Made by a program: the position numbers and the translations under genes. A model generated the notes under the pieces. That model ran no database searches and was not told the DNA's origin. It saw only the letters and a program-made list of their open reading frames with translations. Positions 18,002 to 33,300 of a stretch of DNA of 38,666 nucleotides are shown piece by piece. Within the stretch, counting starts at the first letter, position 1, and every line of letters starts with the position of its first letter. Origin of the DNA: an uncultured Clostridia bacterium (GTDB taxonomy: Bacteria; Bacillota; Clostridia; TANB77; CAG-508); NCBI GenBank assembly GCA_948663505.1, contig CAPNAQ010000001.1:1-38666 (forward strand), given 5' to 3'.

Positions 18002-18524
18002 ATGAAAAATAAAGTAGAAAATAAAAAATTATATATAAAAGAGTTTTTTAAAAGTCTTAAATTTAGAATGATAGCATTACTTGCAGCATTAGGTGTTACA
18101 GTTGGAGGAGGAGCTTTATTATTAGGAGATAAAGAATATAATCAAAATGAAGGGAATAATAGACTTGAAGTGTCGACTGATATAGATAAACAAATTCCAA
18201 AAGTAAAACAATTTTCTAATGAAATAAAAGTTAATATTCTAAAAGAAATAGGATATGAGGATACAAAACAAATAATAACTGAAAGTGCAGATAGAGTTTT
18301 ATTACAAATAGCATTAAAATATAATGAAAGATATGAAACAGATTTAACACCAGATGATTTATCATTAATAGAAAGTAAACCTCAATTTTTAGGAGTTATA
18401 GGTGATAATACATATGTGCAAGATTATAAATCAACTTCACCTGTAGATTATCACATATCAGATAATTGGAAAGATAAAACAAGTATAGATAAAATATATA
18501 TAATTATAAACAGCCGAACAAATG
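18002..18524 (+). pseudogene. 5' part of a membrane-anchored protein gene split by the 8.6-kb insertion
   Basis: The ORF has an N-terminal TM anchor. After ...IYIIINSRTN (codons CGA ACA AAT G at 18515-18524) the track ORF reads 22 unrelated, F-rich codons inside the insertion's inverted repeat and then stops at 18592. Confidence 0.75.
18515..18524. repeat. target-site duplication, left copy (CGAACAAATG)
   Basis: Exact 10-mer repeated at 27114-27123, in the same reading frame of the split gene. Confidence 0.8.
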
Positions 18525-18525
18525 G

Positions 18526-18549
18526 TATGTGTCAAGTATTTGTTGGCAA
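18526..18549. repeat. left terminal inverted repeat
   Basis: TATGTGTCAAGTATTTGTTGGCAA matches TTAGTGTAAAATTTATGTAGGCAA, the reverse complement of 27090-27113, at 17 of 24 positions by eye. Confidence 0.6.
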
Positions 18550-18618
18550 TTTTTTTATTTTTTTTAAAATTCGTCAAATTCCCTATTTATAAAGCATTCA
18601 TTAATATTATTTTTTTGT

Positions 18619-18798
18619 TTATGGATTATATCCATATTTTTTTATTATTTTTCTTGTTTGTTCCCATACATCTTGAGGAGTAAAAATATTTTCATTAATA
18701 TTTTCTCCCCAATATTTTAATATCTCTTTTTCTTGTTTCTCATTTATTCTAATAAAATTTTTTCTTAAATCTTCTATATAAATTTTTGTTTTTATCAT
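18619..18798 (-). CDS. hypothetical 59-aa protein downstream of the transposase, not in the ORF track
   Basis: ATG 18798 has an AAGGAG RBS that overlaps the transposase stop codon. Sequence: MIKTKIYIEDLRKNFIRINEKQEKEILKYWGENINENIFTPQDVWEQTRKIIKKYGYNP. Confidence 0.4.
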   Translation of the reverse strand: MIKTKIYIEDLRKNFIRINEKQEKEILKYWGENINENIFTPQDVWEQTRKIIKKYGYNP

Positions 18799-18813
18799 TT
18801 TATTTTTCTCCTT

Positions 18814-20328
18814 TTATCTATACATTAATGCTGTTGGTTCTAATAATTTTATTATTTTTTTCATTTCTTCTGTTTTTTCTATTACTCTTCCTTGTGCATA
18901 ATTATATTCTTCTAGTTCTTTTCTATCTACTCTGTGCATTTTTCTATTTTTCTTAACATTTTCCTCAATTTCTTTTATCCATTCTTCAATACTGTTATCA
19001 ATTGGAATATTACTTTCGATTTTTTCAATTTTTATTTCTCCGTTATTTTCATGGTATATTGCACATATTTTTGATAAATAATTTGCCCCTAATTTTAAAA
19101 ATGCTTTTCTTCCACTGCATAATCTGACTTTTAATACTGTAAATATTTGGCTTTCCATTGTTCCCATGTCTTTATATTCAATATCTTTCGGAGGTTCAGG
19201 CATTTTTCTCCCTTGTTCTTCTAATATATCTTGATAACGTGGTAGTCCTGTTTTCAAATAACTTTGTAATGTTTTTAATTTGTCTACTACCTTTTTTTCT
19301 CCTCCTAGTTCACTTTTTAAATTTTCTATATATCCTTGTACTTCATTATATCTCTTTTCTTTTATTATTTGTATTAGTTCATCTCTATATTTTTCCTCTT
19401 TTATATCTCTCATTATTTCCTGTTGTATATGAAAACTGTCTTTTTGGCATATTGTATCATCTGTCGCTGATGTACTTATCCATTTCGCACCGTCTCCATT
19501 ATTTGCCCTAACTTCTATACTTGTTTCATCATATTTTTGATATACTCTTGCATTTCTTAATTTTCCTAATCTTTGAGGCGTCATCATTCCAGCTATTATT
19601 GTTTTGTTTACTAATTCGCTTCTTGTACTGTCTTTTTTCCACCCTTCATACGTTATATGTAGTTTTAATTCTGTTTTCATTTTTCTTTTTGGATTATATT
19701 CTTGGTTTTTCTTTTCACATTGTTTTTTATATTTTTCTTTTGCTTCTTTTCTATCTTTTCCTTGTAAATTAATCCATATTCCGTCGGCTTCTTCAAATAG
19801 TGCAGGAACTTGTTTAGTCCCTTGTACTAATTTACCTTGTTTCATAAATTTTATTTCTTCATTCTCTTTGGCTTCTATTTTTTCCCCTATTTTCCATACT
19901 AATTGCTGTATTGTTTGATGACTTATTGTCTCATTTGTTAGATTTTTTACATCATTTGCTCCTTTTCTATATGATACTGTATTTACCACTGTTTTTAATA
20001 TCATTTCTGCTAAATTGCTTGATATTTTCCCTATTGTTTCTATTTTTATTGTTTCATCTAATAAATATACTGTTTTCTTATCTTTTATATATATCGCCCT
20101 TTTATATTCTACCTCACCCATTATTGTTTTTATTGTGTTTATTCTATATCCTTTATGTCTATATTCTTTCTTGTTTCTTTCTTTCATTAATTTCTCATCT
20201 TGTTTTTCTAATACTTGCTTTATTATTTCACACCCTAAATTACATACTAATTTGAATACCTTTTTTTCTAATTCTATAAATTTCTCATCTTTTACTTCTT
20301 CTTTTACTTCGTTTCTCATTTTTTTCAC
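18814..20328 (-). CDS. ISLre2-family (UPF0236) transposase
   Basis: 504-aa ORF. The N-terminal pattern ELEKKVFKLVCNLGCEIIKQVLEKQDEKL...RHKGYRINTIKTIMGEVEYKRAIY...YLLDE...SYRKGANDV...ISHQTIQQLVWKIG matches UPF0236/ISLre2 transposases as I recall them. Confidence 0.85.
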   Translation of the reverse strand: MKKMRNEVKEEVKDEKFIELEKKVFKLVCNLGCEIIKQVLEKQDEKLMKERNKKEYRHKGYRINTIKTIMGEVEYKRAIYIKDKKTVYLLDETIKIETIGKISSNLAEMILKTVVNTVSYRKGANDVKNLTNETISHQTIQQLVWKIGEKIEAKENEEIKFMKQGKLVQGTKQVPALFEEADGIWINLQGKDRKEAKEKYKKQCEKKNQEYNPKRKMKTELKLHITYEGWKKDSTRSELVNKTIIAGMMTPQRLGKLRNARVYQKYDETSIEVRANNGDGAKWISTSATDDTICQKDSFHIQQEIMRDIKEEKYRDELIQIIKEKRYNEVQGYIENLKSELGGEKKVVDKLKTLQSYLKTGLPRYQDILEEQGRKMPEPPKDIEYKDMGTMESQIFTVLKVRLCSGRKAFLKLGANYLSKICAIYHENNGEIKIEKIESNIPIDNSIEEWIKEIEENVKKNRKMHRVDRKELEEYNYAQGRVIEKTEEMKKIIKLLEPTALMYR

Positions 20329-20376
20329 CTTTTTATTTTATATTACTAAGGGCTTTTTATCGCCCCTAGTTTTGTA

Positions 20377-20634
20377 TTATCTAAATACATATTTAACACA
20401 ATCTAACATTCCTAAACAATACGCACATGCGTTTTCATACCTTGTTATACCACTTATACTGCTTAAAAGCTTTAGATATTCTTTATCTTTCTTGTTTTCA
20501 TAATTTTCTATTATTCTCAAATATTCTTTTCTATGTTCTTCATAAGGTTTTATTCTTCTTAAAAGTTTTTTATTTTTATCTACTTTATTATAAACATAGT
20601 TCAAAAAATATTCAATTATTGATTTTTCATTCAT
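20377..20634 (-). CDS. small protein, YENAxAYxLGM family (paralog 1)
   Basis: 85-aa ORF. MNEKSIIEYFLNYV...TRYENACAYCLGMLD parallels the neighbouring 91-aa ORF. Confidence 0.55.
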   Translation of the reverse strand: MNEKSIIEYFLNYVYNKVDKNKKLLRRIKPYEEHRKEYLRIIENYENKKDKEYLKLLSSISGITRYENACAYCLGMLDCVKYVFR

Positions 20635-20680
20635 GTTTATCTCCTTTATAAAAAAATTATTCTTATTGTTTTATTAATAA

Positions 20681-20956
20681 CTATGTTGGTACTCTTACAA
20701 AACTAAAGCCTTGTTTCATTCCTAAATAATAAGCAAGAGCATTTTCATATGTTGACATTACTTCAAAACAATTAACCAATCTTTTTAATACTAACTTTGA
20801 ATTGTCATCTAATGTATTACAAGTTTTTTCAGTAATTTCACGATAATTATTAAAATATTTTTTATAAGTATCATCTTTTTCTAATACATTTGACATATTT
20901 TGCATTTTATAAGTAACAAAATTTATAAAATCATCGTCCATTATTGTTTCATTCAT
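20681..20956 (-). CDS. small protein, YENAxAYxLGM family (paralog 2)
   Basis: 91-aa ORF with a GGAGGTG RBS. MNETIMDDDFINFV...STYENALAYYLGMKQ. Confidence 0.55.
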   Translation of the reverse strand: MNETIMDDDFINFVTYKMQNMSNVLEKDDTYKKYFNNYREITEKTCNTLDDNSKLVLKRLVNCFEVMSTYENALAYYLGMKQGFSFVRVPT

Positions 20957-21153
20957 TTTTTCACCTCCCTATCTTCATTGTACTTAGTCCTAAGTTTATA
21001 TAACTATATTAACATTTTATAGACCATATGTCAATATTTTTTTCAAATTTTTTAGACTTAAGTTCATATTTTATAGGAGATAATTAAATTTTTATATAAA
21101 AAAGTATTGCTTTTAATATTTTGTTATTATATATTTTCAATGAGGTGAAACAA

Positions 21154-21354
21154 ATGATAAACTATAATCCACTTTGGAAGCTTTTAATTGACAAGGGAAT
21201 TAGTAAATCAGAATTTAGAAATTTATGTAAAATTTCCAAGCAAACTTTAACAGAAATGAACAAAAACAATAATATCAGTCTTAACACTATTGACAGAATA
21301 TGTAATATTTTAGATTGTAATATAGCAGATGTTATAGAACATATAAAAGGTTAA
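21154..21354 (+). CDS. XRE/Cro-like HTH regulator
   Basis: 66 aa from ATG 21154 (GAGGTGA RBS). NPLWKLLIDKGISKSEFRNLCKISKQTLTEMNKNNNISLNTIDRICNILDCNIADVIE is an HTH_26/YozG-like pattern. Confidence 0.75.
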   Translation: MINYNPLWKLLIDKGISKSEFRNLCKISKQTLTEMNKNNNISLNTIDRICNILDCNIADVIEHIKG

Positions 21355-21489
21355 TATTATGTCAACTGTGTATCCTATTTTAACATGATTTTATAAAACA
21401 TCAAGTATTTTTTTGTAAAAGTGCCAAAATAGTTTACATAAATTACTTTTTGATGTTTTGTAAACGATTTTTATATTTTCGTAAAGAAT

Positions 21490-21530
21490 AAAGAGGATTT
21501 TTATTTTTCCTCTTTATTTTTTTTGTTTTT
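21490..21530 (+). terminator. rho-independent terminator
   Basis: 8-bp stem AAAGAGGA / TCCTCTTT with a 10-nt loop, followed by a long T-run. Confidence 0.55.
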
Positions 21531-21760
21531 TTCTATTAAATCAAATATCCTTAATATTACTAAAACAATAATTAATTCTGTTAATGAAATTATAAAAGCT
21601 TTCTTAGTATCATAATTACAAAATTTTAATAGTTTATCAAAATACATCATTTCATCTCTTCCCCCTTCTAAATGAATAATTTATTTTTCATATTATAACG
21701 TTTGGAACGTATAGTGTCAAGTCCGTATATTTCTGTTATTATTTTCATGAGGTAGAAATT

Positions 21761-22009
21761 ATGAGTAAATTTGAAAATGATGAAAAATTAATTAAAACTA
21801 ATGGTTCTATAGAATTTAAACTTTTAGATGTTTTAAATAAAAATAATATTACTAGATATAGATTAAGTAAGATTACTGGTATAAGATATGACACAATTTG
21901 TAATTATTGTTCAGGTAATGTGTCATTAATAAATAAAGAATATTTAAAGATTTTTTGTGATGTCCTAAATTGTAATATTGAAGATATAATAGAATATAAC
22001 AAATCATAA
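21761..22009 (+). CDS. XRE/Cro-like HTH regulator (second copy)
   Basis: 82-aa ORF with a GAGGTAG RBS. LLDVLNKNNITRYRLSKITGIRYDTICNYCSGNVSLINKEYLKIFCDVLNCNIEDIIE is similar in pattern to 21154-21354. Confidence 0.7.
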   Translation: MSKFENDEKLIKTNGSIEFKLLDVLNKNNITRYRLSKITGIRYDTICNYCSGNVSLINKEYLKIFCDVLNCNIEDIIEYNKS

Positions 22010-22010
22010 T

Positions 22011-22037
22011 AAAGAAGTAGCTTTATACTACTTCTTT
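22011..22037. terminator. hairpin between the convergent HTH and Rep genes
   Basis: 10-bp stem AAAGAAGTAG / CTACTTCTTT with a 7-nt loop. It overlaps the last codons of the Rep ORF. Confidence 0.45.
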
Positions 22038-23054
22038 ACTTTCAAATGGGTTAAAATAATATATTTTATTTTCTTCTATTTTATAGCTTTGGCTAAAGTC
22101 TATTTTGGCTATTTTTAAGTCTTTTATGTTTCTGTAATATGTTGATGATGACATGTTATTTTTTATATCTTTTAGTCCATTTAATTGGATTGCACAATAA
22201 AAATTATATAATAAATTTGCTTTTGCTGGTTTATACATTTTGTTTAGTCTTTCATATACTGCCTCTCGTCCTCTTACTATTTCTAAGTCACTTTTTATAA
22301 ATTGTAATACTTTCATAAATTCATCACCCCATACTTTCCTTAATTCTTCATATTTTACATCTTTTATTTTTATATGTTTTTCTTTTTTGTATATCTTTTT
22401 TAGCATTTTCTTTTTGATTTCACATTCAAATCTTATAAATCCATTTATTTGCTTTATATAGTCTATTATGTTAAATTCTGTGTTTATAAATTTCTTTATG
22501 TCATGTTTTTTGAATTCTAGTAGTTTATTATATATTTTTAATGTTGTTGTTGTTCCTGATAGATAGAGGCTTTCATCATAGAAAAATTTTGCGTTTCTTC
22601 TTGGATAACTACATCTGCTTAGACTGTTTATATAGCTTTTTACATTTTCTTGGTTTTCTAAGTCATAACATATTGCTATATCACATCTTTGTAAGTTCCA
22701 GTTTTCTATATTTGGTAATTTTATATTAAAATCTGTTTCTACTATTCTAATTAGATTTTCAGTTATGAATTCTATATCATAATATCCATTATGGCTATTA
22801 TATCCCATTATTATTTTGTGATAACTGCCTTCTATTTCTATATAATAACCTTTGTCTACAAATCCATATTTTATTCCTGTATCTACTCGAACACTTAATC
22901 TACTATCAAATGACCCTTGCAAATGGTCGTTTGTTATCTCGTATATTAATTGGTTGGTATTATTATTTATTGAACTTTTTACTATGGATTTTGATTTTAT
23001 TGTATTGTATATTTTTTGGTCGATTTCTGTATATATTTTTATTGTATCTATCAT
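22023..23054 (-). CDS. filamentous-phage gene II/X-family rolling-circle replication initiator (Rep)
   Basis: 343-aa ORF. IEGSYHKIIMGYNSHNG resembles the GSxxKxxxGHNxxG block of gene II/X (Phage_CRI-like) initiators as I recall them, and LQRCDIAICYD resembles the RxDxxxD block. The neighbouring inovirus morphogenesis genes support the call. Confidence 0.65.
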   Translation of the reverse strand: MIDTIKIYTEIDQKIYNTIKSKSIVKSSINNNTNQLIYEITNDHLQGSFDSRLSVRVDTGIKYGFVDKGYYIEIEGSYHKIIMGYNSHNGYYDIEFITENLIRIVETDFNIKLPNIENWNLQRCDIAICYDLENQENVKSYINSLSRCSYPRRNAKFFYDESLYLSGTTTTLKIYNKLLEFKKHDIKKFINTEFNIIDYIKQINGFIRFECEIKKKMLKKIYKKEKHIKIKDVKYEELRKVWGDEFMKVLQFIKSDLEIVRGREAVYERLNKMYKPAKANLLYNFYCAIQLNGLKDIKNNMSSSTYYRNIKDLKIAKIDFSQSYKIEENKIYYFNPFESKEVV

Positions 23055-23071
23055 TTTTTTACCTCATATTT

Positions 23072-23290
23072 TTATATTTCACCGTTTAATTTTTCTAATG
23101 TACTTCTATATCTACATTCTGTAGTATAATTGTCAATTTCTCCTGTTTTTAGCATTTGTCTTATTGCTATACGACAATTTATAATGTCAGAACTATTAAG
23201 ATTTATTGTTATTTTTCTTGCTTCTTCATCTCTTTCATTTAGTTTTTTTACTACTTTATCCAATATATCCTTAAAAATATCTTCTTCCAT
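23072..23290 (-). CDS. hypothetical small protein upstream of Rep
   Basis: 72-aa ORF with a strong AAGGAGGAG RBS. I recognise no family. Confidence 0.5.
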   Translation of the reverse strand: MEEDIFKDILDKVVKKLNERDEEARKITINLNSSDIINCRIAIRQMLKTGEIDNYTTECRYRSTLEKLNGEI

Positions 23291-23355
23291 TTTTTTCTCC
23301 TCCTTTATTTTTTCCTATATATGGGACATTCGGCGGGTGTTACTAAGACACCGCC

Positions 23356-23514
23356 TTAAAATTTCAATAATAATTTTTCTATTTGTTCTATTTTATTTTT
23401 TATGTCTTTGTTTTTAAATGGTATACATTTTAGAGTTTCTTTTGCTGTTAATATACAGCCTTTTACTAATTTTATTTCTTCTTCTGTTTCAAATTCTATT
23501 TTGTTTTTTTCCAT
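23356..23514 (-). CDS. hypothetical 52-aa protein, not in the ORF track
   Basis: ATG 23514 has an AGGTGA RBS. Sequence: MEKNKIEFETEEEIKLVKGCILTAKETLKCIPFKNKDIKNKIEQIEKLLLKF. The GC-rich hairpin at 23332-23355 follows the stop directly. Confidence 0.35.
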   Translation of the reverse strand: MEKNKIEFETEEEIKLVKGCILTAKETLKCIPFKNKDIKNKIEQIEKLLLKF

Positions 23515-23895
23515 TTCTTTTCACCTTTCTTTTTATCCTCCAAATTTATAAAAATTTATCATCTCCCAGCCCAACCACCTTTTTAAAATAACACTTTTAG
23601 CAAAGCCTACGAAGGTTTTTCTGTTAGTAAGAGGTCTAAACCCTTCTAATGTCTATATATATCAATGTTTATATATATATTTACTTGTTGGTGTTTTCGC
23701 TTCTTTTTACCTTTAGGCTTAGACCTCTGTTTTAATTGTAATTAATTGCTTCGTATGTCAATTACAAAAATGGCATAAAGTAGCTTGGCTTTCTGGTATT
23801 CCCATTTTATACATTTTTTTCATTGACAAATGCTGGGCTTCGTTGTTTTGTATTTGCTAAAAGTTACATTTTATAGTCACTAAATTTTTATATTT
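23515..23895. promoter_or_regulatory. phage intergenic region (candidate origin / packaging-signal region)
   Basis: A 380-bp non-coding gap between the assembly ATPase and the replication genes. It has AGAGGTCTAA (23630-23639) / TTAGACCTCT (23719-23728), AAGCCTA(CG)AAGG (23603-23615) / CCTTTAGGCTT (23710-23720), TTGTAATT-N16-AATTACAA (23736-23767) and a (TA)n tract at 23652-23681. Confidence 0.35.
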
Positions 23896-24759
23896 TTATC
23901 TTTCATTTCTGTTTATGAATTCTGTTTTTTGCATTGTTTCAACTACTTTATAGCTGTCGTATAAGTTTCTTATATAGTTACTTTGTATAAATGATTTTTT
24001 CCATTTTTTACGCATTTTGAATTTTTTTTCAGGTGTTGGATTGTCTACTATTGTGTTATAATCTTCGGCGTCATAGCATTTTATTCTTGTCCACCTTCCC
24101 ATGAATGTTTTGCATTCTATTACATCAAAGCATTGTTCTCTTATTTGTTTTACTACTCTTGTGTATACTTGACTTGATAAGTATATTTTTATTCTTTGTT
24201 TTCTTTGTTGTGTTATTACTGACAATATTCCTTCAGGAAAGTCCTTCCATTTTGTGTTATCATATTCATTTTGTACTTCATCAATTACAAATACTACCCC
24301 TTTTGTTCCGTTTCTTATTTCTAGTAATTGCCTCCAGTCTGTTAGTGGTAAATCTTGTTTTATGTAGTGTATATTTGTGCATATTATACAGTCAGGATAT
24401 GCTTCTTTTATTTTTTCTAATTGTTCTACTATACTGATTGTTTTTCCACTTCCTTGCCTTCCACAATATATTGATACTCCAAATAAGTTAAATGTTCGTC
24501 CATTTATTAATAACATAAATAGGTCGTATATTTTCCAACGTATAAAATCCATTAGCTTTATTATAAAACCAAATATTGGTATTTCTATATTAGATATTTT
24601 TATTTGTTCTAAATAGTTTGCTATTTTTAAAAATTTATATTGCATTTTTAGCCTTTTAAATCTTGTGTATATTTCAATAAATTCTGATATTGGTAAATCT
24701 TTAAAGATTTCTAATCTTAGCTTTTTATAATATTTGTTTAAATTTATATTTCCTTTCAT
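23896..24759 (-). CDS. Zot/pI-like inovirus assembly ATPase
   Basis: Walker A GRQGSGKT, Walker B VFVIDEVQ, then RKQRIKIYLSSQ, as in Zot-type NTPases. The start is moved from 25005 to ATG 24759 (AAAGGG RBS), because the upstream 246 nt overlap the better-supported 83-aa membrane ORF. Confidence 0.7.
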   Translation of the reverse strand: MKGNINLNKYYKKLRLEIFKDLPISEFIEIYTRFKRLKMQYKFLKIANYLEQIKISNIEIPIFGFIIKLMDFIRWKIYDLFMLLINGRTFNLFGVSIYCGRQGSGKTISIVEQLEKIKEAYPDCIICTNIHYIKQDLPLTDWRQLLEIRNGTKGVVFVIDEVQNEYDNTKWKDFPEGILSVITQQRKQRIKIYLSSQVYTRVVKQIREQCFDVIECKTFMGRWTRIKCYDAEDYNTIVDNPTPEKKFKMRKKWKKSFIQSNYIRNLYDSYKVVETMQKTEFINRNER

Positions 24760-24770
24760 TTTTGCCCTTT

Positions 24771-25022
24771 CTATCCCATGTTTATAAATGGTATTAATTT
24801 TAAAATGAATTGTATTATTGCCCATATTAAATGTACTGTTATCCAAAATACTATATTTCCAATAACCATTATCCAAACATCTGAGGGGAAAAACTGCATT
24901 GCTTTTATTAATAATTCTGTTGTGTTTACAATAGATGTTGGTATATATGTTAGTACTGGTATTATTCCAATTATTCCTTTTGAAAATATTAATAGTGGCA
25001 TACACATTAATTCTATTATCAT
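24771..25022 (-). CDS. small integral membrane protein (phage morphogenesis module)
   Basis: 83-aa ORF with 3 hydrophobic segments. Its ATG (25022-25020) overlaps the TGA (25021-19) of the upstream 178-aa ORF in an ATGA arrangement, which suggests translational coupling. Confidence 0.55.
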   Translation of the reverse strand: MIIELMCMPLLIFSKGIIGIIPVLTYIPTSIVNTTELLIKAMQFFPSDVWIMVIGNIVFWITVHLIWAIIQFILKLIPFINMG

Positions 25023-25555
25023 TGATTTTTTCCCCCTATACTTGTATTTTTTTCTAGTCCTAAGGCTGTCGCTCCGTCTGCTACGTTTATTCCTCTTAAA
25101 AACTTTGTTATTTGATTTAGGTTATATATAATCATAAATATGAATGTAAATCCTCTTACCCATGAAAACCATGTTTCTTTATATTTTGTAATTTTTCCAA
25201 AGTCTATAAATTTGTTTTGTTCTACTTCAAGATTTTCTGTAATTTGATATTTTGGTAAATCTATGCTTAAACTATTATCACTTTCTAATGTTTTTATTGT
25301 TTCAAATAGTCTTACATAATCGTTATATGGTATTTTTTCAGATATTTTTTCTTTTATCTCTTCAATATTATCATTAAAGAAATTTTCACTTGGAATAAAT
25401 AACAATTTTAATAAGTTTCCTAATAGGTCTATTATTGCTTGCGGTATTGCTTTTATGGCTTCCCATATAAAATTAAACCAGTCCCATAAATCAATAAATA
25501 TATCTGCTATTCCTTTTATTATGTTTCCGTGGTAACTCCCATAAAAAGTTTCCAA
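25019..25555 (-). CDS. pVI-position minor coat / membrane protein
   Basis: 178-aa ORF with a TTG start preceded by AGGA. It has a hydrophobic N-terminal region and a C-terminal TM segment (WFSWVRGFTFIFMIIY). It follows the pIII-like gene, as gVI does in Ff. Confidence 0.45.
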   Translation of the reverse strand: METFYGSYHGNIIKGIADIFIDLWDWFNFIWEAIKAIPQAIIDLLGNLLKLLFIPSENFFNDNIEEIKEKISEKIPYNDYVRLFETIKTLESDNSLSIDLPKYQITENLEVEQNKFIDFGKITKYKETWFSWVRGFTFIFMIIYNLNQITKFLRGINVADGATALGLEKNTSIGGKNQ

Positions 25556-25618
25556 TATTTCCTAATGCTTCTATAATATTTTCAAAAAAACTTGTTAATC
25601 CTCCTATTATTACATTTC

Positions 25619-26254
25619 CTATGTCACTCGCGAGATTACCGATTTTATTACATATATCAGTAAGCCAATTGATAATATTATTAAACCAATTGGAATTATC
25701 ACTTGTATCGTTTTCGTTGTTATTGTTGTTATTTCCTCCACCTGTGTTATTTCCTTGATTGTCACCTGTGGAGCTTCCTGAAAAAAAATCGTTTTATATG
25801 TTCCATCTGTATATATGTCTATATTTCCACCTAAATAAATGCTATTATTAAAATATGTTGTATAAAAATATCCATGGCTTGTATAATTTGTTTTTATAAA
25901 TGTATTATTGTTATATTCATACAATACGCCCTCTATTTCTGAATTTACTGTATTAAAGTATATACAATATGATTTACCCATATTTTGTACATCATTGCTA
26001 ATATACTGTTTCAAATTAGGGTATTTTTCTTTTGATACAAATAATACAGAAAATATATCGCCATTATATCTAAAACTATAATAATATTTATCACTTTTAT
26101 ATTCTTCTGTTTCGTAAAGAGCTTGATAGATTTCTTGAGGTATTTCTAACACTGTTATATCTTCATAGCTAGCAAATGCTTTATTTATAAAAGTAATTGT
26201 TATTAATAAAAATATTGTTATAGCTATTATTATTTTGTTTTTTATCTTTAACAT
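25619..26254 (-). CDS. pIII-like adsorption/minor coat protein
   Basis: 211-aa ORF with a GGAG RBS. It has a signal peptide ending AFA|SY and a C-terminal TM anchor (IIPIGLIILSIGLLIYVI) with a basic tail. It lies immediately after the major-coat candidate. Confidence 0.5.
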   Translation of the reverse strand: MLKIKNKIIIAITIFLLITITFINKAFASYEDITVLEIPQEIYQALYETEEYKSDKYYYSFRYNGDIFSVLFVSKEKYPNLKQYISNDVQNMGKSYCIYFNTVNSEIEGVLYEYNNNTFIKTNYTSHGYFYTTYFNNSIYLGGNIDIYTDGTYKTIFFQEAPQVTIKEITQVEEITTITTKTIQVIIPIGLIILSIGLLIYVIKSVISRVT

Positions 26255-26330
26255 TGCTTTATCTCCTTCTATATTTTAATAGCCCAGTATACGGCATATA
26301 ATGCCATATACATGGGCATATTTTAAATAA

Positions 26331-26492
26331 CTAGAAAAATTTGTATATTATTCTAGGTATTAATGAAACGGCTATCATAATGCCCATTAATGTTAATCCT
26401 ACAGGCAATAATACCCCTAAATTTGAAGTAATATTTGAAATTAAGCCTGAAAACATTGTGCTAGTTAATGTTAATGTTGACACAGTTTCCAT
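26331..26492 (-). CDS. pVIII-like major coat protein candidate (53 aa), not in the ORF track
   Basis: ATG 26492 is preceded by GGAGAAAGGAAGG. METVSTLTLTSTMFSGLISNITSNLGVLLPVGLTLMGIMIAVSLIPRIIYKFF has a polar N-terminus, one TM helix and a basic/aromatic C-terminus. An 11-bp stem-loop (26287-26311) follows. Confidence 0.6.
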   Translation of the reverse strand: METVSTLTLTSTMFSGLISNITSNLGVLLPVGLTLMGIMIAVSLIPRIIYKFF

Positions 26493-26571
26493 TTTTGCCT
26501 TCCTTTCTCCATTTTAAAGGGGTTTTACCCCTTTAAATGGTTTTATCTTTTGTATATTTATTACAAAGTTT

Positions 26572-26712
26572 TTAATAGAAAAATCTACTAAAAAACCAGT
26601 AACCAAAGTAAATTATTAATATTAATACTATTCCATAAGTAAATAATTGAAAAAATGTATTTAGTGTTTTTATTTGCATTAATATTTCTTCTAATAGTTC
26701 TATTTCTGACAT
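26572..26712 (-). CDS. small hydrophobic protein (46 aa; pVII/pIX position), not in the ORF track
   Basis: ATG 26712 starts 1 nt after the TAG of the upstream ORF. MSEIELLEEILMQIKTLNTFFQLFTYGIVLILIIYFGYWFFSRFFY has one TM helix. Confidence 0.45.
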   Translation of the reverse strand: MSEIELLEEILMQIKTLNTFFQLFTYGIVLILIIYFGYWFFSRFFY

Positions 26713-26713
26713 T

Positions 26714-26983
26714 CTATTCAACACCTATCAATTCACAATTCCAATAACTTATTCGTTTTTCTGAATTATAAACTTTGTCAAATCCTAGTACTAATTTTAT
26801 TAATGCAAATCTTTGTAAGTTTAAAGGGGCTATTTTATCAATTAGTTTTTCATCTTTTGAAATAAAGTTAAATTTTTTATTGTCTTTTGCTAAAACATTT
26901 ATTGATATGTATTGTTCTCCTTCCTTTGTTACTCCTACCCTTTTGTCAATAAAGTTAAATTCTTGCGTTCCTTTAATAACCAT
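26714..26983 (-). CDS. gV-position protein (possible ssDNA-binding protein)
   Basis: 89-aa ORF with an AGGAGG RBS. It is the first gene of the structural operon, and its size and position match gene V of Ff. I recognise no sequence motif. Confidence 0.4.
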   Translation of the reverse strand: MVIKGTQEFNFIDKRVGVTKEGEQYISINVLAKDNKKFNFISKDEKLIDKIAPLNLQRFALIKLVLGFDKVYNSEKRISYWNCELIGVE

Positions 26984-27089
26984 TTTGTTTTTTTCCTCCT
27001 TTTATATAAAAAAATATATAGGCTATTATTACCTATATATTTTTATTACTTTATATTTACTTATGAGTAATATTTATATAGGTAATTTT

Positions 27090-27113
27090 TTGCCTACATA
27101 AATTTTACACTAA
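27090..27113. repeat. right terminal inverted repeat
   Basis: TTGCCTACATAAATTTTACACTAA. Its reverse complement matches 18526-18549 at 17 of 24 positions by eye. Confidence 0.6.
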
Positions 27114-27123
27114 CGAACAAATG
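27114..27123. repeat. target-site duplication, right copy (CGAACAAATG)
   Basis: Exact copy of 18515-18524. Confidence 0.8.
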
Positions 27124-27350
27124 AGATAATTGCGTCAATAGGAAGAGTAAATTATAAAGTAACAAATATAGATACAAAAATAGTAATGAATGATAAAAGA
27201 AAAGAGTATTTAGAAGCTGAAGATAAAATAGATATAACAGAAGGGAAAACAGACGAAGAAAAAGAGCAAATATATAATTCACTTAAAGAAAGATGTTTAG
27301 AACAAGATAAAGTAAATAATAGATTTGATAATAAACAAATGGAATTGTAG
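27114..27350 (+). pseudogene. 3' part of the split membrane-protein gene
   Basis: An open frame of 78 codons with no start codon runs from CGA ACA AAT GAG: RTNEIIASIGRVNYKVTNIDTKIVMNDKRKEYLEAEDKIDITEGKTDEEKEQIYNSLKERCLEQDKVNNRFDNKQMEL, stop TAG 27348-27350. A TAA stop lies immediately upstream. The frame matches the left part through the duplication. Confidence 0.75.
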
Positions 27351-27381: not shown

Positions 27382-30300
27382 ATGAATAAACTTCCACTTT
27401 TTGCAAACAATAAGAAAAAACTTATTGAAGCAAGGAGTGGAATTTTTTTGAAAGAAAATAGAAAATTAAAAATAACAGGAGCAATGCTAGAAAAAAGTCA
27501 GTTAGAAAACCACTTAGAAAAAATAGCAGCAAGCCATAATACAACAACAAAATCGCAAAAAGAGACATTTCCAATACCACAATTAATAGAAAATTATAAA
27601 GCCATAGAAGATGTGTATAATTTATTAAATGAGCATTTAAAAATAGGAATAAATATACATCCAGCAGGAGAATGGTTATTAGATAACTTTTATATAATAG
27701 AAGAAACTGTAAAGCAAATACAAAAAGAATTAACAATAGAAAAATATATAAATTTTGTTGGAATTGCAAATGGAGAATATAAGGGATTTGCAAGAATATA
27801 TGTATTAGCCTCAGAAATAGTAGCATATACAGAAAATAAAATTGAAAGATATAATTTAGAAGATTACTTAAAAAGCTATCAAAGTAAAAAAACACTTAGT
27901 ATGGATGAAATATGGAACATAGGAATATTTTTACAAATAGCAATAATAGAGAGAATTACTGAAATATGTGCAAAAATATATAGTAGTCAAATGCAAAAAT
28001 ATCACGCAGAAAACATTGCAGAAAGATTAATAGAAAATAAAGAAAAAAATGATATAAAATTTAAAAACAATTCTAAAAAAGTTGAAAAAGAAATGTTACA
28101 AGACATGAGGTATCCATTTATAGAATATATGGCATATATATTAAAAAGATATGGAAAAAAAGCAAATGCATATTTAAACATATTAGAAGAAGTTGTAGAA
28201 AAGTTAGGAACAACAGTATCAGATATTATAAAAAAAGAACATTTTGATATAGCTACACAAAAAGTGTTAATGGGAAATAGTATAACAAGTATAAAAGAAA
28301 TACACAGAATAAACTTTTTAGAAATATTTGAGAAAATAAATGGAGTAGAAGAAATATTAAAACAAGATCCAGTACAAGTATATAGTAAAATGGATCATAA
28401 AACAAAAGAATATTATAGGGGGAAAATAAAAGAAATAAGTAAAAAGACAAAAATATCAGAAATATATATATCAAGGAAAATGTTAGAATTAGCACAAGAG
28501 AATTTTGAAAAAGAAGGTGAAAATAAAAAAGCTCATATTGGATATTATTTAATAGATATAGGCATAAATAGGTTATATGATAAATTAGAATATATATCTA
28601 AAAAGGAAGATTCTCCAAAAAATAAAACGAAAATATATATTTTAGCAATAATAGTTTTAACAACAATTATATCTGGATTTTTAAGTTATGTATTAAATTT
28701 ACAAATTAAAAATAATTGGATAGCAATTGCAAGCTTTATTCTATTTTTTATACCTGCTAGTGAATTTGTAATACAAATTATTCAAAACATTTTAAATAAA
28801 GTTGTAAAACCAAAAATAATACCTAAAATAGATTTTTCTGAAGGAATAGATAAAGAAAATTCAGCAATAGTAGTAATCCCAACAATAGTAAAATCAAAAG
28901 AAAAAGTAAAAGAAATGATGGAAAATTTAGAAAGATATTATTTAGCAAACAAATCTAAAAATTTATATTTTGCATTATTAGGAGATTGTTCACAAAGTAA
29001 AAATGAAAATGAAGAATTTGATAAAGAGGTTATACAAGAAGGAAAAAAACAAGTACAAAAATTAAATGAAAAATATCCAAATGATAATTTTCCAATATTT
29101 AGTTTTATATATAGAAAAAGAGTTTGGAATGAAAAAGAAAATTGTTATTTAGGCTGGGAAAGAAAAAGAGGACTATTAAATCAATTTAATGAATACATTT
29201 TAAATCAAGAAAAAAATCCGTTTAAATCAAATACAATTCAAGAGGCAGAAAATATAAAAGCAATAAAAGATATAAAATATGTAATTACATTAGATGCAGA
29301 CACAGATTTAGTTTTAAATTCTGCATTAGAATTAGTCGGTGCAATGGCACATATCTTAAATAAGCCAATTATAGATAAACAAAGAAATATAGTAATTGAT
29401 GGTTATGGTATAATGCAACCACGAGTAGGAGTAAATTTAGACATAAGCTATAAAACTATATTTACTAAAATATTTGCAGGTGCTGGCGGGATAGATAGTT
29501 ACACAAATGCAATTTCTGACATATATCAAGATAATTTTAAAGAAGGAATTTTTACAGGAAAAGGAATATATGATTTACAAGTATTTTCAAAAGTTTTAAA
29601 TAATAGATTACCAGAAAATAAAATATTAAGTCATGATTTACTTGAAGGTTGTTATTTAAGATGTGGTTTAGTATCAGATATTATGCTAATGGATGGTTAT
29701 CCTACAAAATATACTAGTTTTATGAATAGACTTTCAAGATGGATTAGGGGAGATTGGCAGATTATAGGTTGGCTTGGAAAAAAAAGTCCCTTAAATCTAT
29801 TATCAAAATTTAAAATTTTCGATAATTTGAGAAGAAGTCTTTTTGAAGTTTCTATTTTAGTAGCATTAATTTATATTAATATTATCAGAAAAATATATGA
29901 TATAGATATTTTAGGAATAGATAGTTTATTAATAATAATTGAAATAATTCCTTATATAATAGAATTATTTAATTATTTAATAGGAAAAAAAGAGGGAGAA
30001 GAAAAACAAAAAACGTTTACCCCTAAAATTACTGGATTTAAAGGTATATTTGCTAGGATAGTAATTGCTTTAGGATGTTTACCATATAAGGCATATTCTG
30101 CAATAAAATCAGCTATAAAAACAATATATAGACTTACAATATCCCATAAACATTTATTAGAATGGATGACATCTGAAGAAGCGGAAAAGCTAGCTAAAAC
30201 AGATTTTATAACATATTATAAAAATATGTTTGTAAATATTATTGCAGGTATAATTTCACTAATTATTTATTTTGAAGACAAAAGCATTTTAGCTTTAATT

Positions 30301-33300
30301 TTAGGAATAGTATGGATAATAGCACCTGCTATTATGTGGTATATTAGCAAAGAGAAGAACGAAATTCAGAAAGTGGAAGTGTTAAATCAGAATGAAAAGA
30401 ATTATATTTTAGATATTGGTAAACGAACTTGGGCATTTTTTGAGAATTATTTAAATGAGGAAAATAATTTTTTAATGCCAGATAATTATCAAGAAGATAG
30501 AAAAAATAAAATTGTAAAAAGAACTTCTTCTACAAATATTGGTTTATCAATGTTAGCTGTAATTTCTGCATGTGATTTAAAATTTATAAATTATGAAAAA
30601 GCTTATGATATTTTAAAAAATATAATAAATACTGTGGATATTTTACAAAAATGGAATGGTCATTTATATAATTGGTATAATACAAGTTCAAAGGAGCCAT
30701 TAATTCCTAGATATGTTTCAACTGTAGATAGTGGAAATTTTGTTGGATATTTGTATGTTGTAAAAAGTTGGTTAGAAGAAAGGCTAGAAGATGGACGTTA
30801 TACGTCAGAGATTACATTTTTAATAGAAATTGTAACAAAGTTGATAGAGAATACAGATTTTTCACATTTATATAATAATGAACAAAGATTATTTTCAATT
30901 GGTTTTAATATAGAAGAAAATAAATTAACAAACTCTTATTATGATTTATTAGCATCTGAAGCAAGACAAGCAAGTTTAATAGCAATTGCAAAAAAAGATG
31001 TACCATCAAAACATTGGAATTCATTAAGTAGAACATTAACAACACTTGGAAAATATAAGGGATTAATATCTTGGTCTGGAACAGCTTTTGAGTATTTAAT
31101 GCCAAATATAAATATTCCAAAATACAAAGGAAGTCTATTAGATGAATCATGTAAATTTATGGTTATCAGTCAAATGGAATATTCAAAAAAATTACAAATT
31201 CCATGGGGAATATCGGAATCAGCATTTAATTTAAAAGACTTAAATTCAAATTATCAATACAAAGCATTTGGAATTCCATGGCTTGGATTAAAAAGAGGAT
31301 TAGCAGATGAAATGGTTGTGGCACCATATGGAAGTATTTTAGCAATAACAGATTATCCAAAAGAGGTATATCAAAATTTAAAAAGACTAGAGCAATATGG
31401 AATGTATGGAAAATATGGATTTTATGAATCAATAGATTTTACACCAGATAGATTAGAAAAAGGAACACAATCAAGTGCTGTTAAAACTTATATGGCACAT
31501 CATCAAGGCTTAATATTACTATCAATTAATAATTTATTTAATGATAATATTTTACAAAAAAGATTTATAAGAAATCCTGAAATAAATGCAGTAGATATTT
31601 TATTACAAGAAAGAATGCCTGAAACAGCAATTATAACAAAAGAAAATAAAGAAAAGGTTGAAAAATTAAAATATACTGATTATGAAGACTATATAGTAAA
31701 CACGTATAAAAAAATAGACGAAAGACTAATTAGAGGAAGTGTAATATCAAATGATGATTATTTTATTGCAATGAACCAGAAAGGTGAAGGAATCAGCAAA
31801 TATAAAGATATAATTATAAATAGATATAAAGTAACAGAAGATTACTCTCAAGGTATATTTTTCTATATTAAAAATATCAAATCAAAAAATATATGGAGTT
31901 CAAGATATAGCAAAAATGATGGTAAATATAAAATAAGTTTTATGCCAGATAAAATAGAGCAGGAAGTTACAAATGACAATATTAATACAAAAATAACAAC
32001 AGGAATTGCTCCTGATGAACCTATAGAAATTAGGCAAATGACTTTAGAAAATCTTGGAGATGATGAAGAGATCTTAGAAATAACATCATTCTTTGAACCA
32101 GTACTTTCAAGGCAAGAACAAGATTATGCACATCCTGCATTTAATAATTTATTTTTAATATTTGATTTTGATGAAGAAACAAATAGTATATTAGTAAAAA
32201 GAAAAAGACGAGATGAAAAAGAATTAGAATTATATATGTGTGTAAACTTATCCACAAATAGTGAAATAATTGGGGATTTAGAATATGAAATTGAGCAAGA
32301 AAAGTTTATTGGTAGAGGAAATTTTGGAATTCCACAAATGGTAAAAAACTCAATTCCATTTTCTAAAAAAATAGGACTTGTAACAGAACCAGTACTAAGC
32401 TTAAAAAGAACAATTAAAATACAACCAAAACAAAAAACTACAATTAATCTAATAATTTCAGTAGGAGAAAGTAAAGAAAAGGTTTTAGAAAATATAAAAA
32501 AATATAAAATAGAAGAAAATATTAAGAAATCATTTGAATTGTCTAAAGCAAAAAATGAAGCACAAAATAGGTATTTAGGAATAAAAGGAAAAGAAATTTC
32601 AGATTATCAAAAAATACTATCATATATAATATTTAATAATCCAATGAAAAAGTTAAATTTAGAAAAATTGTCTAAACATAAATATCAGCAAAGTGAATTA
32701 TGGAAATATGGCATATCAGGTGATTTACCAATAATCTTAGTAAAGATAAGAGATATAAATGATTCTTATGTTATAAAAGAAGTATTAAAAGCATATGAAT
32801 TTTTTAGAACCAAGAATTTTATGACAGAATTAGTAATAATAGATGAAGAAAAGCATAGTTACGAAAACTATGTAAGAGAAGAAATAGAAGGAACGATTCA
32901 AAATAGTCAACTAGCATATTTAAAAAATATTAAAGGTGGTATTTTTGAAATTACAAAAAATGAAATAAGTAGAGAAGATTTTAATTTATTAAAATTTATT
33001 TCTGCAATTATAATTGATGGAAGTAAAGGAGGAATTAAAAATACACTTAGAGATTTAGAAGAAGAATATTTAGAAAAATATAAAATGATAGAAGAAGAAC
33101 CTGTAAAAAATCTATTAAAAAATGAAAGTATAGAAGATATAGATATTTTACAAAATTCGGAAAAACTTAAATACTATAATGAATATGGTGGTTTTTCAGA
33201 AGATGGAAAAGAATATTTTATCAAAGTAAATAAAGAAAATAGATTGCCAACAGTGTGGTCTCATATTATGTCTAATGAAAAATTTGGAACACTTGTTACA

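Follow-up and report, generated by a model that had tools for sequence, protein, structure and literature searches.

INTRODUCTION

The ISLre2 insertion sequences (ISs) and the TnGBS conjugative elements belong to one Mutator-like transposase group, p-MULT 3, with inverted repeats (IRs) of 18–39 bp that carry a terminal C and with target duplications of 8–9 bp (Guerillot et al. 2014, PMC3942029); for ISLre2 the duplication is 9 bp (PMC8024623). Insertion of p-MULT 3 elements is oriented, 15–17 bp upstream of the −35 box of sigma-A promoters and next to IR-right, and in their circular intermediates the repeats lie 6–10 bp apart (PMC3942029). Here we analyse a stretch of 38,666 nt (the window; GC content ∼25% throughout) from an uncultured Clostridia bacterium (TANB77; CAG-508; assembly GCA_948663505.1, contig CAPNAQ010000001.1), in which positions 18525–27114 are very probably one mobile unit, a temperate inovirus-type phage whose integration module is an ISLre2/TnGBS-group (p-MULT 3) transposase together with two unequal terminal inverted repeats. 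A preliminary description of the window had proposed a filamentous phage with IS-type termini that moves as one unit, and this view is supported by the ends, the duplications, the empty sites, the copies at several sites and the promoter targeting of the relatives.

Like TnGBS, the unit is a large multi-gene element between unequal inverted repeats, with a transposase of the same group as ISLre2, a duplication of 8–9 bp, the terminal C, and insertion in one orientation upstream of sigma-A promoters, with IR-right on the promoter side. The circular transposition form of TnGBS also serves for replication and transfer, and a comparable dual role is proposed for the phage unit. Unlike TnGBS, it carries a predicted inovirus module (Rep, single-stranded DNA (ssDNA)-binding protein (SSB), Zot/pI and coat) and no conjugation machinery: neither type IV secretion nor relaxase genes appeared for 18525–27114 in the open reading frame (ORF), Pfam or PHROGs results. 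The phage units are also smaller (7–8.6 kb versus ∼47 kb), and their hosts are gut Clostridia-like bacteria instead of streptococci. With the ISLre2 ISs the unit shares a homologous UPF0236 transposase, the left and right inverted repeats (IRL and IRR) of related 1.72-kb ISs, the 9-bp duplication and promoter-proximal targeting, whereas it differs from them in its inovirus genes, which occupy ∼6.7 kb from IRL to the transposase gene, in the missing IS promoter region and in the apparently low copy number of the phage elements.

Among filamentous phages, those of the genus Vespertiliovirus (Plectroviridae; Spiroplasma SpV1-type) possess a transposase, and their packaged genome is regarded as a circular transposition intermediate (PMC8295915). 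They are filamentous ssDNA phages with a transposase, as the window unit would be; in them the transposase replaces the gene II-type Rep and the hosts are wall-less, while the window unit has both enzymes and its relatives lie beside sporulation genes. The SpV1 transposases are IS3/IS30-like, and the window enzyme is Mutator-like. The Neisseria Nf/MDA prophages are likewise inoviruses that integrate by a transposase-type enzyme and not by a tyrosine or serine integrase; the IS110 enzyme of these phages had been named as the precedent, but TnGBS, with the same transposase family, and the transposase-bearing plectroviruses are closer. IS110-family DEDD enzymes recognise repeat sequences in a site-specific manner, and neither terminal inverted repeats nor a target duplication is involved; the window unit, in contrast, has a DDE enzyme, 25-nt repeats, a 9-bp duplication and many sites. 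Finally, Mu-like phages also have genome ends that are the transposon ends of a phage-encoded DDE transposase, and a short target duplication, but they are tailed double-stranded DNA phages that replicate by transposition, whereas the window unit has a rolling-circle Rep, inovirus morphogenesis genes and a DDE enzyme of an unrelated family.

In their survey of inoviruses, Roux et al. (2019) found selfish and virus-domesticated transposases inseparable by sequence alone and pooled them as 'integration or selfish element', and their sole UPF0236-annotated protein family was left 'Unknown' (PMC6813254). In the literature searched, we found no link of ISLre2 or UPF0236 to filamentous phages.

RESULTS

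Boundaries, target duplication and empty sites

The 10-mer CGAACAAATG occurs exactly twice in the window, at 18515–18524 and 27114–27123, where 0.01 copies are expected by chance. These copies had been taken for an exact 10-bp duplication bounding the insert; the exact direct repeat stands, but the true target-site duplication (TSD) is the 9-bp GAACAAATG, and the element is 18525–27114 (8590 bp). The assignment follows from two other loci (L001–L151 denote the metagenome and assembly loci compared with the window): in L124, homology with the window starts exactly at 27114, and in the diverged unit L008 the 9-bp duplication is unambiguous and the termini are G...C. What had looked like a tenth repeated base is the conserved terminal C of the element, not duplicated target.

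In-silico excision of the insert with one repeat copy restored a 249-aa ORF starting at 18002. The corresponding empty sites were found in L115, L116 (GCA_949744815.1) and L120, which read ...AACAGCCGAACAAATGAGATAATTGCG..., with an intact 249-aa gene and a single GAACAAATG. Since such precise empty sites exist, the window insertion is polymorphic. A relative with the phage at the window site but without the transposase, which would have refuted the proposal, was not found; only precise empty sites were found there.

The window phage is also present elsewhere. L124 is 99.06% identical to it over window positions 27114 to 22009 and adjoins a major facilitator superfamily (MFS) transporter gene, and a third site, beside a glycoside hydrolase family 10 (GH10) gene, is represented by L144 and L146. 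Copies that are 99% identical in different samples and at different sites imply recent horizontal spread. The metagenome contig L001 breaks off at exactly 18525, and L147 begins just 2 nt ahead of IRL; such breaks at the element ends are the expected branching of an assembly graph at a mobile element.

Both ends are those of an ISLre2-type IS family

The left end, GTATGTGTCAAGTATTTGTTGGCAA (18525–18549), and the right end, GTTAGTGTAAAATTTATGTAGGCAA (reverse complement of 27090–27114), match at 17/24 positions, exactly as first counted, and at 18/25 when the terminal G/C is included. Among 200,000 random pairs of 25-mers from the window only 12 reached 18/25, and with 11 × 11 offsets allowed 57 of 20,000 did so, which places the match far above chance; both ends are moreover kept in stand-alone ISs and in diverged phage copies. 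Both strands of the repeats end in ...AC-3′, and 25-nt repeats with a terminal C fit p-MULT 3.

A degenerate pattern covering both ends retrieved 106 metagenome stretches with an IRL-type end, all of the GTTAGTGTAAAAT type and with many different flanks, from which 80 loci were listed. In 31 of the 80 listed loci a co-oriented UPF0236 transposase gene, 49–56% identical to that of the window, follows the IRL-type end within ∼125–150 bp. These loci are stand-alone ISs of 1719–1728 bp, and their other end, ...TTGCCTACATTTACTTGACACATAC, matches the left end of the window unit at 20–22 of 25 positions. Because the stand-alone 1.72-kb ISs carry the same two types of end, the right end of the window unit can be assigned as IRL and the left as IRR, both of them genuine, unequal ends of an ISLre2-type IS family.

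We found no internal IS end beside the transposase gene; the best interior match to either end was 15–16/25, the background level. This upholds the early observation that a second copy of the end, which a stand-alone IS would require, is missing next to the transposase gene. A possible relic of IRL upstream of the transposase gene, at 20377–20401 (15/25), was rejected as background. Upstream of the window transposase gene there is no relic of the upstream end or of the promoter of stand-alone ISs either: their promoter region (TTGAAA, 17-nt spacer, TACAAT) is missing altogether rather than split, and a spacer with a GC hairpin seems to have taken its place. The transposase-specific ends enclose the phage as a whole and not only the transposase gene.

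Smaller forms of the ends were also seen. In L069 an IRL is followed within ∼12 nt by an IRR-like end, giving a mini-element of ∼60 bp that resembles a miniature inverted-repeat transposable element, and in L074 an inverted partial IRL (TTTTACACTAAC) lies ∼40 nt after IRL; both look like deletion derivatives, for which mobilisation in trans is conceivable. A lone 25-mer of the IRL type, GTTAGTGTAAAATTTTTGTTGGCAA, occupies one fixed locus of a higher-GC human-gut bacterium at 22 loci (L014, L022–L024, L030, L032 at 2290–2314, and others), with a constant flank in 21 of the 22 (L080 differs) and no related transposase in the neighbourhood; perhaps it is a relic, or else the terminus of another cargo element.

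Related phage units at other sites

L008, from a metagenome-assembled genome labelled 'uncultured Clostridium sp.', contains an 8575-bp unit with flanks unlike those of the window and a clean 9-bp duplication, GAGACTGGG. Its layout is that of the window: IRL, a homologue of ORF89, the Zot-like gene, Rep, an opposite-strand HTH_26 gene, the transposase gene and IRR. Synonymous divergence (dS) between the two is 1.5–1.9, near saturation, yet their terminal 40–55 nt are ∼90% identical. The transposases are 72% identical with a ratio of nonsynonymous to synonymous divergence (dN/dS) of 0.12, the Rep proteins 76% with a dN/dS of 0.08, values which suggest that the two genes have co-diverged under purifying selection.

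In total, seven independent full-length insertions of 7.1–8.6 kb, representing five distinct elements with transposase identity down to 60%, have perfect 9-bp duplications that all differ. Besides GAACAAATG and GAGACTGGG, these are ATAAATAAA (L125/L126), TAACATAAA (L128/L130), TTAAAAATG (L132), ATTACTAGG (L133–L135) and TTATGAAAA (L140). Further copies with the same ends and other duplications, for which a search had been advised, thus exist, and the same element was met at two or three sites (L128 and L129; L132 and L133; L140, L141 and L142). The genomes of the relatives carry sporulation genes.

In L133–L135 (L133, 9374–9420), IRR and the 9-bp ATTACTAGG are followed by a 12-nt partial IRL, GATAGTGTAAAA, and then by the target promoter, an arrangement that may be a relic of a circle junction or tandem copy, or the remnant of an earlier insertion. 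IMG/VR yielded only two partial relatives, L006 and L007, and its scans with the transposase, both ends, the degenerate IRL and a junction pattern gave no match. L006 breaks off within a transposase gene that shares 75% identity with that of the window. L007 (IMGVR_UViG_3300008640_000093, 7145 bp) has a Rep that is ∼75% identical, no transposase or integrase in its 7.1 kb, a DUF2726 nuclease-like gene and an HTH_3 regulator, and its gene order is like a circular permutation of a full genome. Apparent Rep frameshifts are present in both.

Target-site choice

Ten of the 12 phage-type sites have a sigma-70-type promoter whose −35 box begins at an offset of 27–28 nt from IRR, 17–18 nt after the duplication. 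Most stand-alone IS sites share this promoter placement on the IRR side, and there is nothing comparable on the IRL side. The distance of 17–18 nt compares with the 15–17 bp given for p-MULT 3, where the reference points may differ (PMC3942029). The whole phage unit is, to judge from these sites, placed by the same targeting rule as the IS. In L129 the −35 box lies at an offset of 24 from IRR and at the same distance of 17 nt from the duplication, a hint that the cuts are positioned by reference to the promoter.

A promoter-like sequence (TTGCGT, 17-nt spacer, TATAAA; 27130–27158), 15 nt beyond IRL in the window, was rejected as a target promoter, having the wrong side and distance for the family rule; it is probably a chance match. 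Its position is within the 3′ remainder of the interrupted gene, ahead of a giant gene that it could still drive.

The transposase and its relatives

The transposase matches Pfam PF06782 (UPF0236) with 127.3 bits (cut-off 24.3, E 8.5e-37), and its best NCBIfam match is NF033529 ISLre2 (E 4.6e-49, 167.7 bits), with ISH6, ISKra4 and Mbov_0401 far lower. The first assignment, a UPF0236/ISLre2-family transposase, is therefore kept with one restriction: because the score is below the 200-bit equivalog cut-off of NCBI, we regard the protein as a divergent ISLre2-like enzyme. Residues D179 (FEEADGxW), D276 (NGDGAxW), D294xxH297 and E389 are conserved in ≥98% of 120 homologues; by motif position, D179, D276 and E389 form the putative DDE triad, in addition to a C/D(2)H signature. 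In the record the gene starts at ATG (501 aa). An exact look-up of the 504-aa form with the GTG start gave no match, and the 501-aa ATG form matched the same locus only. The small ORF59 between the transposase gene and IRR is 18% identical to a 56-aa ORF at the equivalent position of L008, and it is missing from most relatives, in which the distance from transposase to IRR is only 61–152 bp.

A protein search gave at least 120 transposase clusters with 60–77% identity. The context of five clusters (P-codes) was phage units of 7147–7573 bp in P0044, P0046, P0133 and P0086, and a stand-alone multicopy IS in P0142. In a neighbour-joining tree, the transposases for which a phage context is known or inferred, nine in total, all fall at scattered positions within a single clade of ∼108 clusters, the sister of which is the stand-alone P0142 group, with metagenome ISs as the outgroup. 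At this limited sampling the tree fits one old capture followed by co-diversification, and the ∼100 related clusters suggest a whole undescribed phage lineage. Among GenBank phages none has this transposase; the sole match is an ISLre2 IS in a tailed phage (21% identity).

Phage genes of the insert

The features of the insert are listed in Table 1. Rep exceeds the curated cut-offs of PF05144 (59.9 bits versus 21.7, E 3.9e-16) and TIGR01629 (44.9 versus 29) and matches PHROG 702 (1.5e-28); its best match among GenBank phages is 27% identical. The assembly ATPase reaches 35.3 bits with PF05707 (cut-off 20.3, E 1.1e-8, scored on the longer ORF) and also matches PHROG 197. The Rep-like and Zot-like assignments of the preliminary description are hence confirmed by profile, as are its two Cro/cI-like genes, both of which match HTH_26, and no tyrosine or serine recombinase was found in the insert, again as described. 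An opposite-strand HTH_26 gene lies between Rep and the transposase gene in all relatives.

The small proteins encoded at 24771–26724 (minus strand) have a pattern of hydrophobic segments typical of inovirus structural proteins, and their homologues in the sister phage L148 are 51–76% identical; no significant Pfam or PHROGs match was obtained for them. ORF89, whose homologue is always the first gene after IRL in the relatives, is probably an ssDNA-binding protein, the analogue of the gene V protein: in Foldseek comparisons of its predicted structure with the Protein Data Bank (PDB) the top matches are almost all OB-fold SSBs, with E-values only from ∼6e-3 and template modelling (TM) scores of 0.43–0.63, and its sequence profile had no match among PDB sequences. 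The intergenic region in front of the assembly ATPase gene is, by analogy with that of Ff phages, a candidate for the replication origin and packaging signal.

A generic promoter scan is uninformative in DNA of 25% GC (79 sites versus 71 expected from shuffled sequence), and no promoter map is claimed. The scan listed no promoter between IRL and ORF89, which is weak evidence only, as the scan is unenriched.

Table 1. Coordinates of the insert, its ends and its genes in the window
Feature	Position	Strand	Basis or remark
Interrupted 249-aa host gene, 5′ part	18002–18524	+	resumes at 27124–27350 after removal of the insert and one repeat copy
Left TSD copy, GAACAAATG	18516–18524		single copy at empty sites
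IRR, transposase-downstream end, GTATGTGTCAAGTATTTGTTGGCAA from outside inward	18525–18549	+	20–22/25 versus the downstream end of stand-alone ISs; ∼89% identical in L008
ORF59, small ORF between transposase gene and IRR, not conserved	18619–18798	−	no family matches
Mutator-like DDE transposase (UPF0236; ISLre2-like, p-MULT 3), 501 aa	18814–20319	−	ATG at 20319; alternative GTG start at 20328
Spacer with GC hairpin (AGGGGC...GCCCT) between ORF85 and transposase gene	20329–20376	−	direct reading; comparable hairpin in L006
ORF85, accessory	20377–20634	−	sub-threshold NCBIfam SLATT_5, 15.4 bits
ORF91, accessory	20681–20956	−	Pfam matches all below cut-off
Cro/cI-type helix-turn-helix (HTH) regulator (HTH_26), opposite to phage operon	21121–21354	+	PF13443, 3.3e-18
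ORF49, small protein with one predicted membrane-spanning segment	21501–21650	−	hydrophobic residues 15–41
Perfect sigma-70 consensus promoter (TTGACA, 17-nt spacer, TATAAT), regulatory region	21692–21720	−	only 12/12 match in the scan
Second Cro/cI-type HTH regulator (HTH_26), 82 aa	21761–22009	+	PF13443, 6.3e-13
Rolling-circle initiator, gene II-like Rep	22023–23054	−	Phage_CRI PF05144, TIGR01629, PHROG 702
ORF72	23072–23290	−	called as a gene in metagenome records; no PHROGs match
ORF52, small phage gene	23356–23514	−	called in metagenome records
Non-coding intergenic region, 381 nt	23515–23895	−	ssDNA fold −38.9 kcal/mol, z = −4.2 versus shuffles
Zot/pI-like assembly ATPase, 287 aa	23896–24759	−	PF05707 Zot; PHROG 197 Zot-like
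ORF83, two predicted membrane-spanning segments	24771–25022	−	hydrophobicity
ORF178, morphogenesis/virion module	25019–25555	−	
ORF211, pIII-like, N-terminal signal and C-terminal anchor	25619–26254	−	hydrophobicity
ORF53, coat-like	26331–26492	−	hydrophobicity
ORF50, morphogenesis/virion module	26572–26724	−	
ORF89, predicted OB-fold protein, first gene after IRL	26714–26983	−	AlphaFold2, mean predicted local distance difference test (pLDDT) 94
IRL, end upstream of the transposase gene in stand-alone ISs, GTTAGTGTAAAATTTATGTAGGCAA from outside inward	27090–27114	−	25/25 in L008, L125 and L128
Right TSD copy, GAACAAATG	27115–27123		direct reading; empty sites

In L124 (11043–11279) a different 78-aa gene stands in place of the second HTH_26 regulator of the window, which appears to be an immunity-region swap between otherwise near-identical (99%) phages.

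In the host chromosome, the gene truncated by the phage insertion is a 249-aa membrane-anchored gene just upstream of the giant gene, which is an ORF of 2595 aa at 27382–35169 (plus strand), directly downstream of the insertion; it is called as 2573 aa in metagenome records and matches the GH94, Glycoamylase and GH94_b-supersandwich domains. By these domains it resembles a cyclic beta-1,2-glucan synthase or phosphorylase.

A sister phage without transposase and IS ends

The phage of L148–L151 has the same gene order as the window unit, with 71% identity in Rep, 62% in Zot, 76% in coat and 72% in ORF89. Its backbone is closer to that of the window than the backbone of L008 is. In L148–L151 there is no transposase and there are no IS ends; imperfect direct repeats of 37 bp, spaced 6.0 kb, bound the phage at a site downstream of rho (L148, 8791–8827 and 14804–14840). 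This integration looks like an att-type one, possibly Xer-dependent. Directly after the right-hand repeat, L149 and L151 carry a second element, with two tyrosine recombinases, which points to a hotspot where elements stack, like a dif site or a site of integrative mobile elements exploiting Xer (IMEX). Because the sister has the backbone without transposase or repeats, the ∼6-kb backbone is a complete phage by itself, and the transposase with its repeats is an exchangeable integration module.

DISCUSSION

Proposed cycle of the unit

By analogy with TnGBS, IS256 and ISLre2 (PMC3942029), the transposase would make, and later integrate, a double-stranded circle in which IRR and IRL abut, and this transposition circle would be the replicative form of the phage. 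In such a cycle the gene II-like Rep would amplify the circle by rolling-circle replication from the structured intergenic region, ORF89 would cover the ssDNA, the filaments would be extruded by the Zot/pI-like ATPase together with the small membrane proteins, and the two opposite-strand HTH_26 regulators would maintain lysogeny.

The IRR–IRL junction can be written as ...ACTTGACACATAC + N(0–12) + GTTAGTGTAAAATTTATG.... As had been speculated, the joined ends might form a promoter that faces the promoter-poor structural operon, with TTGACA (−35) from IRR and TAAAAT (−10) from IRL. Their spacing is 12 nt plus the bridge, and a working spacer of 16–18 nt needs a bridge of ∼4–6 nt. If the 6–10 bp between the repeats of p-MULT 3 circles apply, the spacer would be 18–22 nt, and the junction promoter is possible only at the lower bound. 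If true, it would switch the phage on only in the circular state.

Several observations weigh against this account of a transposable phage. The circular junction (IRR, a few bases, IRL) is absent from the fetched contigs, and IMG/VR is without either end or junction; virions, ssDNA and circular forms are proposed from the genes and the ends. The window copy itself lies inside the 249-aa gene and has no promoter at the expected position (best score 6/12), and L129, the same element as L128, has only a 6-bp duplication (CATAAT). Matching duplications were seen in only 1 of ∼14 stand-alone IS copies of metagenome contigs (L095), probably due to chimeric assembly across multicopy repeats, and stand-alone IS duplications were not used as evidence. 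To these may be added the score of the transposase below the equivalog cut-off, and the fact that genomic context was read directly for only 6 of the ∼108 clusters, with 3 more inferred from contigs of matching length.

Alternative explanations

Alternatively, the unit could be a true transposon with a defective or domesticated inovirus as cargo, which makes no virions and spreads by transposition and other vectors. No circular form was seen in contigs or IMG/VR and no virion or ssDNA was observed, there is no secretin gene, most structural ORFs lack family matches, and Rep appears frameshifted in L006 and L007, all of which would agree with such a cargo. We nevertheless consider it unlikely: the window has every core function in intact form, Rep is under purifying selection (dN/dS as given above), the structural genes are kept with the sister phage at 51–76%, and 99%-identical copies occur in different samples and sites. 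The missing secretin is in fact not expected, because hosts with sporulation genes are probably single-membraned. It would be quite improbable that a phage enters resident ISs again and again, each time at the same place between IRL and the transposase gene, by a site-specific mechanism of its own. The att-type mechanism of sister phages with the same backbone, and the IS-type subterminal hairpin beside IRL that is retained in L008, would suit such nesting; against it, there are no att-like direct repeats or phage-only boundaries inside the unit, the transposase promoter region of stand-alone ISs is absent instead of split, and the empty site is also without an IS. Moreover, the phage transposases form one clade apart from stand-alone ISs and co-diverge with Rep, and identical whole units lie at several sites with differing duplications and the promoter targeting of the family.

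Two further explanations are already contradicted by the data. The location of the transposase gene, with only 289 bp between it and the left end of the insert, and the abundance of stand-alone ISs of the ISLre2-type family would be natural if an ordinary stand-alone IS had landed in, or at the edge of, an unrelated prophage, the likeness of the far end being a coincidence. We give this hardly any credence, as the transposase gene and the phage genes are not separated by any IS end, the far end agrees with the family IRL of independent elements at 25/25 positions, the duplications flank the whole 7.1–8.6 kb in seven independent insertions, and the empty site lacks the entire 8.6 kb. Many inoviruses use XerCD, and the sister L148 is flanked by a 37-bp direct repeat, so that site-specific recombination by a host Xer-type enzyme, or by Rep nicking, with the 9-bp repeat as att core, might be considered. 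Its probability is negligible, for the 9-bp repeats listed above (GAACAAATG and the six others) are unrelated between sites, exactly one repeat copy is present at the empty site, and the ends are inverted repeats shared with ISs. A single phage unit delimited and moved by its own ISLre2-like transposase is left as the best explanation.

Meaning for filamentous phages of gut Clostridia

Filamentous phages with transposases and transposable integrative and conjugative elements are known already; what is well supported here is a single transposable phage unit, for which the life cycle is proposed by analogy. From the ends, the duplications, the empty sites and the copies at several sites, the transposase can be taken as the integration module of the phage, which settles for one lineage the question of selfish versus domesticated transposases. 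The principle of TnGBS, a Mutator-like DDE transposase that replaces the integrase and targets positions upstream of promoters, is thereby extended to a phage, and the att-bounded sister indicates that integration modules are swapped between otherwise similar filamentous phages.

A wider proposal, which we make tentatively and hold to be somewhat doubtful, is that 'transposable inoviruses' form a so far unrecognised lineage in gut Clostridia, rich in species (∼100 transposase clusters at 90% identity), whose replicative form is the transposition circle of a Mutator-like element. Such phages would be copied out without loss of the prophage, amplified by Rep and pasted in upstream of a promoter in the next host.

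Prophage finders that rely on integrases or on att repeats of ≥10 bp will miss or mis-delimit such elements, for which the conserved 25-nt ends are an exact handle, both for delimiting the elements and for locating their insertion sites. Moreover, insertion upstream of promoters may change host gene expression in gut Clostridia.

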